From: Mycolicibacterium smegmatis
GTDB lineage: Bacteria; Actinomycetota; Actinomycetes; Mycobacteriales; Mycobacteriaceae
Assembly: GCF_001457595.1 (NCBI RefSeq)
Contig: NZ_LN831039.1
Coordinates: forward strand, 4,980,001-5,012,000
DNA: 32,000 nucleotides
Direction: 5' to 3'
The notes under the pieces were generated by a model. That model was not told the DNA's origin, made no database searches, and was given only the letters and a program-made list of their open reading frames with translations. Both the position numbers and the translations under genes were made by a program. This document shows positions 1,929-19,192 of the stretch, in pieces (position 1 is the stretch's first letter; the number at the start of each line of letters is the position of its first letter).

Positions 1929-2240
1929 ATGACGGCAGAACCAGTACCCACCGCGGAGCCCGGCGGGAAGGTGACCATCCTGTTCGAGCGTGAGCGGGTG
2001 TCGGTTCCGCGCAGGCCGAACGAGACGCTGCTGGAGAGCGCCCGACGGGCGGGCATGACACCTCCGTTCTCATGCGAGGCGGGTAACTGCGGCACGTGCA
2101 TGGCCAAACTCCTCGAGGGCACCGCCACGATGCGCGTCAACGACGCCCTCGACGACGACGAGGTCGCCGAGGGTTACGTGCTGACGTGCCAGGCGGTTCC
2201 GGACTGCGACACCGTGACGGTCTCCTACGACGACGACTGA
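1929..2240 (+). CDS. plant-type [2Fe-2S] ferredoxin
   Basis: Cys pattern CEAGNCGTC...LTCQA (C-x4-C-x2-C...C). ATG at 1929 is preceded by GGGGAG. The ORF-track start at 1827 would lie inside the promoter region. Confidence 0.85.
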   Translation: MTAEPVPTAEPGGKVTILFERERVSVPRRPNETLLESARRAGMTPPFSCEAGNCGTCMAKLLEGTATMRVNDALDDDEVAEGYVLTCQAVPDCDTVTVSYDDD

Positions 2241-3304
2241 GAACGAGCCTGCGCCTGCCCGCCCGCATACTCGTCGAACGCCGGCGGCGGGCGATAATCC
2301 GGTTGGTACCCGGCGATGCGGATCGAACTGCCCACCAGACGGAAATCGCCTGCGGTGACGAGCGCCTCGGGTGTCTCCGAAAGCGCTTCGGGCAGTGTGC
2401 GCACCGCGGCGACCGGGATGCCCAGCGGTTTGAGCCGTTTCTCCCAACTCGCGGCCGAGTCGGTCGCCAGTGTCGCAGTCACCACATGCAGCACCTCGTC
2501 ACGGCGCGCCGCGCGTTCGGCCATGGTCTCGAACCCCGAAATGCCGGCCTCGCCGGCGAACGACCTCCAGAACCCGTCGTGCGTGATGAACAGCGCCAGG
2601 TATCCGTCCGCCGTCGGAAACAGCTGCGCCGGAACGTAATAGGAATGCGCGCCGTTGGGGTGGCGGCGCGGTTCGGCACCGTCGTTGAGATACGCCGACG
2701 CGCGGTAGTTCAACTGCGACAGCATGACATCGCGCAGCGACACATCCACCTGCCCTCCGCGCCCGGACACGATCATCGCCAGCAGACCCAGCGCCGCGGT
2801 GAGACCCGTCGAGTTGTCCGCCGACGAATACCCCGGCAGCGTGGGCGGACCATCCGGGTCCCCCGTCATCGCCGCGACCCCCGTCGCGGCCTGGATCACG
2901 TAGTCGAACGCGGGATCGTCACCGCCGTCGAGCCCGAACCCCGTCATCGCGACGCACACGATCTCGGGGTTGAACTCCTTGAGCGCGTCGTAGGTCAGAC
3001 CGAGGCGGCGGATCACCGAAGGCTTCATGTTCACCAGCAGTGCGTGTGAATCCGCCACCAGCTCAGCGAGTCTCGCCTTCCCATTTGCCGACGCGAGGTC
3101 CAAGCACAGGCTGCGCTTGCCGCGGTTGAGGCTCGCGAAGTAACTGTCCCCCACCTGGCGCGAGATCTCGCCGCCCGGCGGTTCGATCTTGATCACCTCG
3201 GCGCCGAGATCCGCGAGCATCATGGTGGCGTACGGGCCCGCGAGCATCACGCCGACCTCGATGACGCGGATACCGGCCAGCGGAGCGCTCGCGCAAGCGC
3301 TCAT
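2225..3304 (-). CDS. family III CoA-transferase (CaiB/BaiF/Frc-like)
   Basis: N-terminus GIRVIEVGVMLAGPYATMMLADLGAEVIKIEPPGG is typical of family III CoA-transferases. The ATG (3304) overlaps the upstream gene's TGA as ATGA. Confidence 0.88.
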   Translation of the reverse strand: MSACASAPLAGIRVIEVGVMLAGPYATMMLADLGAEVIKIEPPGGEISRQVGDSYFASLNRGKRSLCLDLASANGKARLAELVADSHALLVNMKPSVIRRLGLTYDALKEFNPEIVCVAMTGFGLDGGDDPAFDYVIQAATGVAAMTGDPDGPPTLPGYSSADNSTGLTAALGLLAMIVSGRGGQVDVSLRDVMLSQLNYRASAYLNDGAEPRRHPNGAHSYYVPAQLFPTADGYLALFITHDGFWRSFAGEAGISGFETMAERAARRDEVLHVVTATLATDSAASWEKRLKPLGIPVAAVRTLPEALSETPEALVTAGDFRLVGSSIRIAGYQPDYRPPPAFDEYAGGQAQARSQSSS

Positions 3305-4257
3305 CGCACCGCCTTGGCGAGTTCGGCGATCACCTCACGCGTGCGGTACTTCGAGGCGATCAACTCGTCACGGTTGTCGCCGATGGGCAGCAGCCGCACC
3401 GACAGATCCGTCACGCCCGCATCGGCGAACCGCTTGAACCGGGCCAGGATCGCGTCCTCGTCACCGGCCGCGCACAGATCACCGACATTGCGCGCGTCAC
3501 CGCGGTCCAGCAGGCGCTGGTAATTGGGCGACGTCTCGGCCTCGGCCAGGATCCGGTTGGCCCGCTCCTTGGCGGTGTCGATCTCGGAGTTGGCGCACAG
3601 GCACACCGGGATTCCGGCCACGATCCGAGGAGCGGGCCTTCCCGCGTTGTCGGCGGCCTTGTTGATGCGCGGCGCGATGTGGTCACCGATCGCGCGTTCG
3701 TCGGCCATCCAGAGCACCGTGCCGTCGGCGAGTTCGCCTGCGATCTGCAGCATCACCGGACCGAGCGCGGCGACCAGCACGGGCAGGGGTGTCTCGGCGG
3801 CCAGCGCGGTGGGGTTGTGCACCGTGAACGTGTCGTTCTCGACGTCGACGGGTCCCGGCCCGGCCAGGGAAGCGTTGAGCACCTCGAGGTAGTCGCGTGT
3901 GTAGGCGGCGGGCTTGTCGTAGGGCAGACCCAGCATGTCGCGGATGATCCAGTGATGCGACGGGCCCACCCCGAGCGCCAACCGACCCTCGGCGATCGCG
4001 TGCACCGAGAGCGCCTGGCGCGCAAGGGCTACCGGATGCTGTGCCTGCAGCGGCACGACGGCCGTGCCGAGTTCGATGGTCGAGGTGTGCGCGGCCATCA
4101 GCGCGACCATGGACAGGCAGTCGAAATCGTCGGGCACCTGCGGCATCCACGCGCTGTCCAGGCCCGCGGCCTCGGCCCACTGGATGTCGGCCGCGAGCTT
4201 GTTGACCTTGCGTGTCATGTCGCCGCGTTCGGCCCCGATCATCACGCCCAGTCTCAT
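3301..4257 (-). CDS. luciferase-like monooxygenase (LLM) class oxidoreductase, probably F420-dependent
   Basis: 318 aa, MRLGVMIGAERGD...GLDSAWMPQV...LGTAVVPLQAQHPVALARQAL, an LLM TIM-barrel pattern common in mycobacterial F420-dependent LLMs. ATGA overlaps at both ends (4254-4257, 3301-3304). F420 usage is inferred, not shown. Confidence 0.8.
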   Translation of the reverse strand: MRLGVMIGAERGDMTRKVNKLAADIQWAEAAGLDSAWMPQVPDDFDCLSMVALMAAHTSTIELGTAVVPLQAQHPVALARQALSVHAIAEGRLALGVGPSHHWIIRDMLGLPYDKPAAYTRDYLEVLNASLAGPGPVDVENDTFTVHNPTALAAETPLPVLVAALGPVMLQIAGELADGTVLWMADERAIGDHIAPRINKAADNAGRPAPRIVAGIPVCLCANSEIDTAKERANRILAEAETSPNYQRLLDRGDARNVGDLCAAGDEDAILARFKRFADAGVTDLSVRLLPIGDNRDELIASKYRTREVIAELAKAVR

Positions 4258-4652
4258 TTGGCCACCTTCTCCGTGAGAGCCCGCACCTCGGTCACCAGCG
4301 TGTCCAGCGGCGTGCCCGTGGGGAACACCGCGGCCGCCCCGACGTCGAGCAGTTTCTGGACGTCGCCCTGCGGGATGGTGCCGCCGACGACGACGGCGAT
4401 GTCACCGGCGTCGGCGGCCCGCAGTGCCTCGACGGTGCGCGCCGTGAGTGCGACATGCGCCCCGGACAGGATCGAAAGGCCGACCAGCGCAACGTCTTCC
4501 TGCAAAGCGATGGACACGATGTCCTCGATGCGCTGCCGGATGCCGGTGTAGATGACCTCGAAACCGGCGTCGCGCAACGTGCGCGCGACGATCTTGGCTC
4601 CGCGGTCGTGACCGTCCAGACCCGGCTTGGCGACCAGCACCCGGGTGGCCAT
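4254..4652 (-). CDS. acyl-CoA mutase small subunit (cobalamin-binding domain)
   Basis: RVLVAKPGLDGHDRGAKIVARTLRDAGFEVIY contains the DxHxxG base-off/His-on motif (DGHDRG). Preferred start is ATG 4652-4650, with AGGA 5 nt upstream. The ORF-track TTG at 4676 lies inside the tandem repeat. Confidence 0.9.
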   Translation of the reverse strand: MATRVLVAKPGLDGHDRGAKIVARTLRDAGFEVIYTGIRQRIEDIVSIALQEDVALVGLSILSGAHVALTARTVEALRAADAGDIAVVVGGTIPQGDVQKLLDVGAAAVFPTGTPLDTLVTEVRALTEKVAK

Positions 4653-4715
4653 CAGAATCCTCGCTTCTTCGCGCAAGCGCTCATCAGAATCCTCGCTTCT
4701 TCGCGCAAGCGCTCA

Positions 4716-4721
<6 letters not shown>
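4650..4721. repeat. perfect 32-bp tandem duplication (2.25 copies) between the mutase subunit genes
   Basis: catcagaatcctcgcttcttcgcgcaagcgct at 4650-4681 and 4682-4713 with 0 mismatches, then catcagaa again at 4714-4721. Confidence 0.97.
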
Positions 4722-6305
<1,584 letters not shown>

Positions 6306-6318
6306 CACTCGATAACGT

Positions 6319-6346
6319 ACTTGCCAAAAATGAGAATGCCAATACC
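6319..6346. promoter_or_regulatory. 28-bp repeated promoter/operator element, copy A (mutase side)
   Basis: acttgccaaaaATgagaatgccaatacc. On the minus strand this reads TTGGCA (6342-6337), a 17-nt spacer, then TACGTT (6319-6314), ending 5 nt before GTG 6308 and 8 nt before ATG 6305. Confidence 0.55.
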
Positions 6347-6465
6347 GCACGGCGGTAATGTGTGGCGTGTGCAGCATGGGAACACCCTCACCTGCGCACC
6401 CTCGCGCCGCACCGAACGCTCAGGCAGTCGGGGTGCGACCCGTCGCCGCACCGCATGAGTACGCC

Positions 6466-9242: not shown

Positions 9243-10544
9243 ATGGCCACGTCGACGGGGGTGCGGGTATCCCCGCTTCGCGTCGCGGTCGCGAGCTTCA
9301 TCGGGACCACGGTCGAGTTCTACGACTTCCTGATCTACGGGACCGCGGCCGCGCTCGTCTTCCCCAAGCTGTTCTTCCCACAGGCCTCGCCCGCGGCGGG
9401 CATTCTCCTGTCGTTCGCGACATTCGGCGTCGGGTTCATCGCCCGACCGCTCGGCGGCATCGTGTTCGGGCATTTCGGCGACCGCATCGGCCGCAAGCGC
9501 ATGCTCGTGTACTCCCTTGTCGGCATGGGTGTCTCGACCGTGCTGATCGGCCTGCTGCCCACCTACGCCCAGATCGGGCTGGCGGCCCCGGTCCTGCTGA
9601 CCGTGCTGCGCCTGTGCCAGGGCTTCGCAGTCGGCGGCGAATGGGGCGGCGCGACGCTCATGGCCGTCGAGCACGCGAGCGCCGACCGGCGTGGTTTCTA
9701 CGGCGCCTTCCCCCAGATGGGCGCCCCGGCAGGCACGGCGTCGGCGACGCTGGCGTTCTTTTTGGCCTCGCAACTGCCCGACGCGCAGTTCCTCGCGTGG
9801 GGGTGGCGGCTGCCGTTCCTGTTCAGCGCCGTGCTGATCGTGATCGGTCTGGTGATCCGGCTCAAGCTGACCGAGAGCCCCGAGTTCTCCGCGGTGGTGC
9901 AGAACTCGGCGGTACGGCGGATGCCGATCGTCGAGGCGTTCCGCAGGCACTGGCGCCAGATCGTGCTGGTGGCGGGCGCCTACCTGTCCCAGGGGGTGTT
10001 CGCCTACATCTGCGTGGCCTACCTGGTGTCCTATGCCACCACCGCCGCCGGGATCGACCGCACCGCCGCACTTTTCGCTGTCTTCGTCGCCGCGCTGGTG
10101 GCCGTGGCGGCCTACCCGGCCTTCGGCGCGTGGTCGGATGCGGTGGGCCGCAAACGTCTGTTCCTGGTCGGCGTGGTCCTCATGGCGGCCTCGGTGTTCC
10201 CGGTCTTCGCGCTGATCGACACCGGCAGCGCGCTGCTGTTCGGCGTCGCGCTGGTCCTGGTGTTCGGCCTGGCGATGGCCCCGGCCGCCGGCGTGACAGG
10301 CGCGCTGTTCAGCCTCGCCTTCGACGCCGACGTCCGGTACAGCGGGGTGTCGATCGGTTACACGCTGTCACAGGTCGTCGGGTCGGCGTTCGCGCCGACG
10401 ATCGCCGCAGCGCTGTACGCCGCGACGCAATCCAGTGACTCGATCGCGTGGTATCTGGTTGCCGTGTCGGCGATCTCGGTGGTCGCCGGTACGCTGCTGC
10501 CGTCTGACCGCAGCGCACCAGAGGCCGCGGTGGTGAAGGGCTAG
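9243..10544 (+). CDS. MFS transporter, metabolite:H+ symporter (MHS) family
   Basis: FIGTTVEFYDFLIYGTAAALVFPKLFF, RPLGGIVFGHFGDRIGRKR and about 12 hydrophobic segments, as in KgtP/ProP/ShiA-type carriers. Confidence 0.9.
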   Translation: MATSTGVRVSPLRVAVASFIGTTVEFYDFLIYGTAAALVFPKLFFPQASPAAGILLSFATFGVGFIARPLGGIVFGHFGDRIGRKRMLVYSLVGMGVSTVLIGLLPTYAQIGLAAPVLLTVLRLCQGFAVGGEWGGATLMAVEHASADRRGFYGAFPQMGAPAGTASATLAFFLASQLPDAQFLAWGWRLPFLFSAVLIVIGLVIRLKLTESPEFSAVVQNSAVRRMPIVEAFRRHWRQIVLVAGAYLSQGVFAYICVAYLVSYATTAAGIDRTAALFAVFVAALVAVAAYPAFGAWSDAVGRKRLFLVGVVLMAASVFPVFALIDTGSALLFGVALVLVFGLAMAPAAGVTGALFSLAFDADVRYSGVSIGYTLSQVVGSAFAPTIAAALYAATQSSDSIAWYLVAVSAISVVAGTLLPSDRSAPEAAVVKG

Positions 10545-13923: not shown

Positions 13924-15242
13924 GATGTCATCGTGGCACGCTGCGCGTCGTCTGCGTGGTCGGTCGGCAGCGGACGTCCCGCGTTCTCGGTGAGGGTGAG
14001 CACCGCGGCGACCGAGACGACGGCCGCGACGATGAGATACAGCGCGGGCGCGTGGTGGTTGCCGGTGGCCGCGGTGAGCCAGGTGACGACGTACGGCGTC
14101 GTCCCGCCGAACACCGCGACCGAGATGTTGTAGCCGATCGAGAAGCCGCTGTAGCGCACGCGCGTGGTGAACAGCTCGACGCCGGCGCTGACCGCGGTTG
14201 CGACGTACGTCGATTCGATGGCCGCGAGCAGGCAGTGCCCGACGATCGCGGCGGCCACCGACCCGGATGTCATGAGCAGGAACAGCGGGTATGCCAGCAC
14301 CACGAACCCGATCGAGCCGGCCAGCAGCAGCGGTTTGCGCCCCACCCGGTCCGACAGCGCGGCCAGCGGCAGGATCAGTACAAGGGCCGTGAGGCTCGCG
14401 AGCGTGATCGACACGAACGACTCGGTCTTGCTGAACTCCAGCGTCTTGATGAAGTAGGTGGGGATGAACGTGAACACCACGTAGTAGCCCACGTTGAAGA
14501 CGATGAACATGCCGATGACCTGCAGGATCGGTTTCCGGGCGGTGCGGAGCGCCTCGCGCAGCGGGGATTTGGCGACGCGGTCGGCCGCGTCGAGCTTCTC
14601 GAACTCGGGGGTGTCGTCGAGACGCAGCCGGATGTAGAGGCCGACCAGCCCCAGCGGTGCGGCGATGAGGAACGGGATGCGCCATCCGTAGGTGTCCATG
14701 GCCTCCGGTGGCAGCAGCGCGGCCAGCACGGTCACGGTGATCGAGCCGAGCAGGAACCCGAGCACGCCGGACCAGGCGATGAACGTGACGGTCAGCCCAC
14801 GGCGGCGTTGTGTCGCGTATTCCGCGAGATACACCGCGCCGCCGCCGTATTCACCGCCGGCGGAGAATCCCTGCAGGCAGCGCAGCAGCAACAGCAGCAG
14901 CGGCGCCACGACGCCGATCGTGCTGTAGGTGGGCAGCAGGCCGATGCCGAGGGTCGCGGCCGACATCAGCAGGATCACGATCGCGAGGACCCGCTGGCGT
15001 CCCAGGCGGTCACCCAGCGGTCCGAAGACAAAGCCGCCGAGGGGACGCATGAAGAACGCAGCGGCGAAGATCGCGAAAGTGTTGAGCAGTGCGGCGGTTT
15101 CGTCGCCCGCCGGGAAGAAGTTCGCGGCGATGGAGGTCGCGAGGAAGCCGTAGATGGCGAAGTCGAACCATTCCACGGCGTTGCCGATCGATGCGCCCAT
15201 GACGGCTCTGCGCACTGCGGTCTCACGGTCTGTGACTGCCAT
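13920..15242 (-). CDS. MFS transporter, metabolite:H+ symporter (MHS) family
   Basis: [15 protein letters not shown] and [19 protein letters not shown], multiple TM segments. ATG 15242 is preceded by AGGAGAGG. Confidence 0.9.
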
Positions 15243-18580: not shown

Positions 18581-19192
18581 ATGAGCGGACCCGAGCGGCC
18601 CTGGTGGGTGAGGCCCGGTGGTGCACCGCCACCACCCGGCGCACCCCGGCCTGCCGCGCCTGGGCCCCGCCCAGGCCCACCACCCGGCCCGCCACCCGGT
18701 CCGCTCCGACCGCCCGCCGCACCGCCCCGCCACAGTGCACCTCCCCCGCGCGCGACCCGGCCGGCACCTCGCCCCAACCCGTACGCCCCGCTGCCGCGGC
18801 CCCGTGCCCAGGGCGGCCCGTCAGCTCCGTCGTCGGCACCGCCGCGCCGCAGGCACAAGGCTCCGGCGCGCTGGCAGGTCGTCGCCATGGCCGCGGCGGC
18901 CGTCGTCGTCATCGCCGCGGTGGCCGTGGGACTGTGGATGCGCGGTGAGGCCGGCGGCCCGCGCCTCGACGTGCGCCAGGCCGAGGCCGGCGTGGCCGAG
19001 ATCCTGTCCGATCCGGTGTACGGCTACGGCGCGAACGACGTTGCCGCGGTGGCGTGCAACAACGGCAAGAACCCCCGCGTCGAGGTCGGCTCGACGTTCA
19101 TGTGCGCGGTCGACATCAACGGCACCGTGCGGCAGGTGGTGGTCGAGTTCACCGACGACGACGGCACGTACGCCGTCGACGGCCCCCGCTGA
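18581..19192 (+). CDS. Pro-rich membrane-anchored protein with a C-terminal DUF4333-like domain
   Basis: ATG 18581 is preceded by AGGAGAAG. It has about 95 Pro-rich residues (PGPRPGPPPGPPPGP), one TM helix (VVAMAAAAVVVIAAVAVGLW), then a two-Cys domain VACNNG...FMCAVDINGTVRQVVVEFTDDDGTY, as in mycobacterial DUF4333 proteins. Confidence 0.75.
   Translation: MSGPERPWWVRPGGAPPPPGAPRPAAPGPRPGPPPGPPPGPLRPPAAPPRHSAPPPRATRPAPRPNPYAPLPRPRAQGGPSAPSSAPPRRRHKAPARWQVVAMAAAAVVVIAAVAVGLWMRGEAGGPRLDVRQAEAGVAEILSDPVYGYGANDVAAVACNNGKNPRVEVGSTFMCAVDINGTVRQVVVEFTDDDGTYAVDGPR

Follow-up and report, generated by a model that had tools for sequence, protein, structure and literature searches.

A short, dispersed MIRU-like repeat of variable copy number between the mutase subunit genes of Mycolicibacterium smegmatis

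The window analysed in this study, a 32-kb stretch of Mycolicibacterium smegmatis DNA, contains on its minus strand an operon for an acyl-CoA mutase, and a tandem repeat lies between the genes of the two mutase subunits. The genes of the operon and the features of the repeat are given below, in the order in which the minus strand reads them.

4716-6377, minus strand: acyl-CoA mutase large subunit, 553 aa from the first ATG (NCBIfam TIGR00641, E = 1.2e-195)
4650-4721, minus strand: tandem array of two perfect 32-nt units and 8 nt (TTCTGATG) of a third, seen by direct reading and with Tandem Repeats Finder
4684-4716, minus strand: mini-ORF 1, MSACAKKRGF and a stop codon; its ATG shares its A with the large-subunit TGA
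4690-4693, minus strand: AGGA motif, the other copy, 5 nt 5' of the mini-ORF 2 ATG (direct reading)
4652-4684, minus strand: mini-ORF 2, an exact copy of mini-ORF 1; the A of its TGA is also the first base of the B12-binding subunit's ATG
4658-4661, minus strand: AGGA, a Shine-Dalgarno-like motif, 5 nt 5' of the small-subunit ATG (direct reading)
4254-4652, minus strand: B12-binding small subunit, 132 aa, starting MATRV (NCBIfam TIGR00640, E = 1.9e-42)
3301-4257, minus strand: F420-dependent LLM oxidoreductase, downstream, with a 4-nt ATGA overlap with the preceding gene
2225-3304, minus strand: CoA-transferase (CaiB-type), downstream, with a 4-nt ATGA overlap with the preceding gene

The ATGA overlaps at the downstream genes show that the whole operon is translationally coupled, so that the repeat sits at the first coupling junction. 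Gene callers start the large-subunit gene at 6305, which gives a protein of 529 aa. The small-subunit protein is encoded with the same sequence on many contigs, which the source labels of the neighbouring protein assign to M. smegmatis, and one of its orthologues (P0191) carries the source name pivalyl-CoA mutase small subunit.

On the minus strand, the two copies of the 32-nt unit occupy 4650-4681 and 4682-4713. Within 4500-4860, this strand reads GTGTTCTGATG, two copies of AGCGCTTGCGCGAAGAAGCGAGGATTCTGATG and then GCCACC, and TTCTGATG is present on both borders of the array. Tandem Repeats Finder reported a period of 32, 2.2 copies, 100% matches and a score of 144 for 4650-4721, by far the top-scoring repeat of the window. 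An earlier note on this DNA had described a perfect 32-bp duplication with 8 nt of a further copy at this position, and direct reading and Tandem Repeats Finder agreed on it. The 32-mer occurred at exactly two sites in the 32-kb window, with no third site at up to 3 mismatches, and none of 100 dinucleotide-preserving shuffles contained a match when 3 mismatches were tolerated. The codons form a continuous chain on the minus strand: the large-subunit TGA (4718-4716) runs into the ATG of mini-ORF 1 (4716-4714), the TGA of mini-ORF 1 (4686-4684) into the ATG of mini-ORF 2 (4684-4682), and the TGA of mini-ORF 2 (4654-4652) into the ATG of the B12-binding subunit (4652-4650). Both mini-ORFs are 10 codons long, encode the same peptide and are joined through TGATG overlaps. 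Every coordinate that the note had given was correct on reading, and the mini-ORFs are chained in the way it had set out.

Two other repeats were observed in the window. A 117-nt inverted repeat (9535-9651 and 14840-14956; 72% complementary, arms 5.2 kb apart) probably represents a pair of paralogous gene segments that have diverged and face in opposite directions. A 24-nt tandem repeat at 18878-18927 (2.1 copies, 88% matches, GTCGTCGCCATCGCCGCGGCGGCC) is unrelated to the 32-nt unit and probably lies inside a coding region, because its period is a multiple of 3.

The list of open reading frames also contained a 140-aa ORF with a TTG start (4254-4676, minus strand) that begins within the last repeat unit and extends the small subunit at its N-terminus (LREEARIL-MATRV...). 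The small-subunit orthologues begin at the same MxxRVLVAKPG position, and on this comparison the extension is probably spurious. A similar repeat-derived N-terminal extension was seen in public annotation, in the CysN entry P0400 (MREEESAQLMTT...; MREEESAQLM-CysN). For annotation, this means that the repeat misleads gene callers, since start codons within the unit give rise to N-terminally extended proteins.

The earlier note had predicted a locus of variable copy number and had asked whether the duplication might be an assembly artefact. We compared the mutase junction among M. smegmatis genomes and found 0, 2 or 3 copies of the unit. Two copies were present in GCA_029221935.1, which is 100% identical to the window over 6.4 kb, and in GCA_004310095.1, whose large-subunit protein is identical (compared at the protein level). 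Three copies were present in CP102342 and CP009495 (mc2 155-type), with 99.2% identity to the window, and CP027541, with about 98.4% identity, had 0 copies. The prediction of variable copy number was borne out. All the differences seen separate lineages that are 0.8-2% apart, and none was observed within a clone. The presence of the 2-copy allele in two independent assemblies shows that the array is not an assembly artefact, and the 3-copy allele likewise recurred in two other genomes. The mutase-junction array is therefore real and polymorphic within M. smegmatis, both in presence or absence and in copy number.

Perfect short repeats are prone to mis-assembly, and bacterial intergenic repeats are often palindromic, so we also considered an artefact or a structured RNA or DNA element such as a REP/MITE-type hairpin, a terminator or an attenuator. 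The agreement of the 2-copy and of the 3-copy allele across independent assemblies speaks against the former. As to the latter, the RNA fold of the array had a z of -1.66 relative to shuffled controls, and single units folded as DNA had energies between -2.4 and -3.7 kcal/mol (z about 0), no different from those of shuffled controls. Neither RNA nor DNA folding revealed a stable hairpin or terminal inverted repeats of the REP/MITE type, a promoter and terminator scan of the array region found no such site, and an Rfam scan of the region gave nothing over the array even at E up to 10. Both versions of this explanation are scarcely credible.

To collect orthologous junctions without bias as to the repeat, we used homologues of the small-subunit protein. 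All mutase junctions sampled in this way were empty. The 0-copy M. smegmatis junction (CP027541) reads GTGTTCTAGTGGCCACC. The junction sequence TTCTAGTGGCC is common to the 0-copy M. smegmatis and 2-3 related lineages, among them Mycobacterium sp. BMJ-28 and a lineage with a protein named after M. dioxanotrophicus. The M. brisbanense junction is TTCTAGGTATG and has no element, and another Mycolicibacterium carries a 15-nt spacer at this position, again with no element. Because the orthologous junctions are empty and TTCTAGTGGCC is common to several lineages, the comparison indicates that the ancestral mutase junction is TTCTAGTGGCC, in which a TAG stop overlaps a GTG start (TAGTG). The filled allele cannot be read as the native sequence with an insert added. 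Both ends of the array carry TGATG in place of TAGTG, so that the large-subunit stop is TGA where it was TAG, and the small-subunit start is ATG where it was GTG.

These results bear on the origin that the earlier note had suggested, a slippage duplication through the 8-nt microhomology at the borders. In its purely local form, this explanation takes the array to be a duplicated native spacer, produced by slippage on TTCTGATG and unrelated to any other sequence, as the two identical units and the TTCTGATG on their flanks might suggest. The ancestral junction, however, has neither the spacer nor TTCTGATG, and 20-32 nt of the unit recur at at least 47 other junctions in many species. The empty ancestral junction and the dispersed matches refute a local origin, and we regard it as practically out of the question.

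We then examined the dispersed matches. In a collection with one genome per species, a 21-mer of the unit matched 13 genomes of Mycobacteriaceae, each of which had 1-3 tandem copies and all of which were Mycolicibacterium, Mycobacterium or related MAGs. The matches in these 13 genomes fell at about 8 different junctions, including cysD/cysN, sdhA/sdhB, a site in an mce operon and, in another species, the mutase junction itself. At least 120 metagenome contigs, mostly from soil and rhizosphere, carried the unit's 20-nt head, ATGAGCGCTTGCGCGAAGAA. For a census of the family, this head was searched at up to 3 mismatches over all the DNA collected. Among the matches listed, there were 241 copies in 145 arrays with 1-7 copies per array; 84 arrays had 1 copy, 36 had 2, 18 had 3, 6 had 4 and one had 7. 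The periods among the matches listed were mainly 32 (55 cases) and 33 (35 cases). Several contigs, L013, L117 and L123 among them, carried 2-3 separate arrays each, and the mutase-junction array was the sole array of the family in the 32-kb window. Where the protein clusters of flanking genes carried organism names, these were all Mycolicibacterium or Mycobacterium. The unit is thus dispersed across junctions of Mycobacteriaceae, mainly in environmental Mycolicibacterium.

In 101 of the 136 arrays listed, the first ATG lies on a TGATG whose TGA closes an upstream ORF of at least 60 codons, and in 92 of the 136 the stop of the last mini-ORF overlaps the start of an ORF of at least 60 codons (TGATG or ATGA; -1 or -4). 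Coupling at both ends to co-directional ORFs of at least 60 codons was found for 69 of the 127 evaluable arrays, at 47 or more junction types. For the other 58 of the 127 arrays, coupling was not clean on both sides; some of these precede the first gene of a series, and others have a mini-ORF stop that misses the start by a few bases. Besides cysD/cysN and sdhA/sdhB, the host junctions included ftsQ/ftsZ, ilvB/ilvN, nuoD/nuoE, hisD/hisC and pyrB.

The most frequent unit length in the family is 32 nt (range 29-35 nt), and terminal units are 29, 32 or 35 nt long, all 2 mod 3. The 3' half of the units is purine-rich, with the consensus CAGAGGGCACTG. The 20-nt head is much more conserved than the tail, even at orthologous junctions with diverged tails; its conservation is partly forced by the collection of loci through exact matches, and the residue exceeds the expectation for a neutral spacer. 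Identical 12-nt tails were found at unrelated junctions, for example GAGACAACGCTG before ybeY and in an mce operon, indicating that the whole unit disperses and not the head alone. Orthologous junctions vary in copy number, with 1-3 copies at cysD/cysN and 1-4 at nuoD/nuoE. When cysD/cysN was sampled through the CysN protein, empty junctions with the native sequence TTCTGATGAC were found in three lineages; these came from the best 120 matches of a CysN homologue search, all of them environmental relatives.

Two variants were observed within the family. The metagenome contig L117 carries three separate arrays, at nuoD/nuoE and at two other sites, and one of them is built of four copies of a 30-nt variant that has diverged and uses GTG starts (GTGAGCGCTCGCGCGAAGTACACCGGGCAT); since 30 is divisible by 3, the mini-ORFs of this array fuse in frame. 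On the contigs L050, L071, L088, L106, L107 and L119, following ...MSEYR and a stop codon, a downstream lipoprotein-like gene starts with ATGAGCGCT.... This gene start matches the first 9 nt of the repeat, which makes the boundary between the last unit and the gene ambiguous, and the junction may be an example of microhomology seeding insertion or expansion.

We considered whether the peptide MSACAKKRGF itself might have a function, as a micro-protein or as a cysteine-sensing regulatory leader. Nearly all copies share its first six codons (MSACAK), and the element is common at cysD/cysN. Against this, the variant copies of the head showed 24 non-synonymous and 1 synonymous substitutions and thus no sign of purifying selection on the mini-ORF peptide. 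The C-terminal half is not conserved, the ORFs of 33-nt arrays fuse into one longer ORF, there is a single Cys codon and no run, and the host operons are functionally unrelated. The supplements of an M. smegmatis ribosome-profiling study (PMC4633059) mentioned neither the peptide nor the tags MSMEG_4880/4881, which we had guessed for the locus. A functional peptide is very unlikely, and the mini-ORFs would instead be translated only as ribosome relays.

Taken together, these data make it likely that the array arose by local expansion from a short dispersed intercistronic repeat that preserves translational coupling and varies by slippage. Each unit comprises an ATG overlapping whatever stop codon stands upstream (TGATG), the head ATGAGCGCTTGCGCGAAGAA with its 20 conserved nt, a purine-rich tail that is less constrained and could act as a ribosome-binding site, and a stop codon overlapping the next start (TGATG or ATGA). 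A ribosome that ends the large subunit would restart on mini-ORF 1, pass to mini-ORF 2 and then reach the small subunit, and in each unit it would terminate at the TGA, re-initiate at the overlapping ATG, translate 10 codons and terminate on the next start. Such relay translation, which we infer from the arrangement of the codons, would preserve the coupling of the ancestral TAGTG junction at any copy number, and this is presumably why insertions are tolerated inside essential or housekeeping operons. Copy number probably changes through replication slippage or unequal recombination between identical units, since the identity of the units and the copy-number differences among close relatives fit either process. 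The net effect of the array on small-subunit output is expected to be modest.

The earlier note had also raised the idea that copy number tunes the stoichiometry of the subunits, which we regard as speculation. In its adaptive form, the element would be a selected, tunable coupler whose copy number determines the flow of ribosomes to the small-subunit gene and thereby adjusts the large:small subunit ratio in a phase-variable way. Copy number does vary between strains and between orthologous junctions in other taxa, the insertion turned the small-subunit start from GTG into ATG and brought a GAGGA motif, and the head shows more conservation than would be expected of a neutral spacer. Against this, dozens of unrelated operons that share no function carry the unit as well, most junctions collected through proteins are empty, and variation within a clone was not seen. 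We therefore consider a selected control of this kind unlikely, and continue with the reading of the array as an expanded copy of a dispersed, coupling-preserving repeat.

How this repeat reached the mutase junction was examined at its ends. At the mutase junction, we found no fixed-length target-site duplication derived from the target's own sequence, and the presence of TGATG ends at a junction that is natively TAGTG argues against target duplication of the transposase style. Across the family, the upstream flank matched the unit tail over at least 4 nt in 14 of 74 arrays (expected, about 2.6), and 14 of 69 downstream genes (20%) started with ATG followed by AGCG, compared with 4% in the background (P = 5e-7). 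The length of the end microhomology varies between 0 and 6 nt. Donor-type TGATG ends together with variable end microhomology favour templated copying, and the element may have reached the mutase junction by such copying or by gene conversion from another filled junction, a hypothesis based on one filled/empty comparison. A cysD/cysN-type donor and the mutase junction have TTCT in common on the left and TGGC on the right. Neither viral contigs (searched with each half of the unit) nor GenBank phages or PLSDB plasmids contained a match to the unit, and no gene associated with the element was identified.

A more tentative proposal, to which we give a rather low probability, is that the head ATGAGCGCTTGCGCGAAGAA serves as the recognition or priming site of a copying mechanism aimed at stop/start overlaps (TGATG or ATGA). 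If this were true, the family would represent a class of mobile DNA for which translational coupling defines both the specificity of insertion and its tolerance by the host, and the 0-, 2- and 3-copy alleles of M. smegmatis would be a tractable system for the movement of MIRU-type repeats.

MIRUs are used worldwide in the typing of tuberculosis. To our knowledge, their origin, spread and function have never been settled, and the question of how they move has been open since 1997. Searches of the literature by sequence, peptide and keyword, with incomplete coverage, returned no description of a MIRU-like unit in M. smegmatis or Mycolicibacterium. The present family follows the logic of MIRUs, has a clear 20-nt signature and comprises more than 100 arrays across environmental mycobacteria, and it offers a tractable route to how MIRU-type repeats spread. 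Because filled and empty junctions and copy-number polymorphism occur in the fast-growing, tractable M. smegmatis, insertion, relay and copy-number effects are directly testable.

For comparison with a MIRU locus, we analysed the senX3-regX3 intergenic region of M. tuberculosis (L138, 1355-1593). The results showed 3.1 copies of a 77-nt unit whose ORFs (MTCADDD...EWR and a stop codon) are chained by TGATG, with the first ATG overlapping the senX3 stop. The 32-nt unit and the family consensus had only the 8-mer CGCTTGCG in common with the 77-nt MIRU, and their alignment to this one MIRU locus gave P about 0.06-0.26 against dinucleotide-preserving shuffles. In the same region, the RegX3 entries P0001-P0004 (245-277 aa) start with the MIRU-encoded peptide MTCADDDAERSDE..., apparently because indels have put MIRU ORFs in frame with regX3, so that MIRU copy or indel variants can create annotated, N-extended RegX3 isoforms. 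RegX3 homologues with N-terminal extensions were also checked as possible carriers of the 32-nt element, and the element was absent from them.

REP, BIME, ERIC and MITE sequences are palindromic and structured, and usually lie after operons or between convergent genes. The element described here is likewise short, dispersed and intergenic, but it has no significant structure and sits exactly on coupling junctions. With VNTR/ETR minisatellites, which change by slipped-strand mispairing, it shares perfect tandem units and a strain-variable copy number; unlike them, it is not specific to one locus and is built round stop/start overlaps, and its length, 2 mod 3 at least in the last unit, leaves the ORF relay intact. 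Engineered bicistronic-design couplers (cited in PMC12548453) also have a short ORF with an internal ribosome-binding site that overlaps the downstream start, whereas the present element is natural, repeated and dispersed, and its coupling function is putative.

The closest comparison is with M. tuberculosis-complex MIRUs (Supply et al. 1997), for which we relied on the accounts in PMC12548453 and PMC3914561. A relay of ribosomes through MIRU ORFs has been proposed in a recent review of translational coupling (PMC12548453). Like MIRUs, the present element lies between operon genes in the same orientation as those genes, forms head-to-tail arrays of variable copy number, has in each unit a small ORF that overlaps the upstream stop and the next start, occupies many dispersed loci (the family as a whole) and lacks dyad symmetry. 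It differs in its unit length (29-35 nt here versus 46-101 bp in MIRUs; PMC3914561), in its hosts (fast-growing environmental Mycolicibacterium versus the M. tuberculosis complex) and in the sharply conserved 20-nt head and variable tail of the family. The earlier note had likened the array to MIRU/VNTR loci on the basis of its architecture. That architecture, with TGATG chaining and stop/start overlaps, was indeed found at senX3-regX3, but membership of the MIRU family was not supported, because a unit of 32 nt falls outside 46-101 bp and the sequence similarity to the one MIRU compared was not significant. We have therefore filed the element as MIRU-like and not as a member of the MIRU family, and it is best read as an intercistronic element that is shorter than MIRUs and has their architecture.
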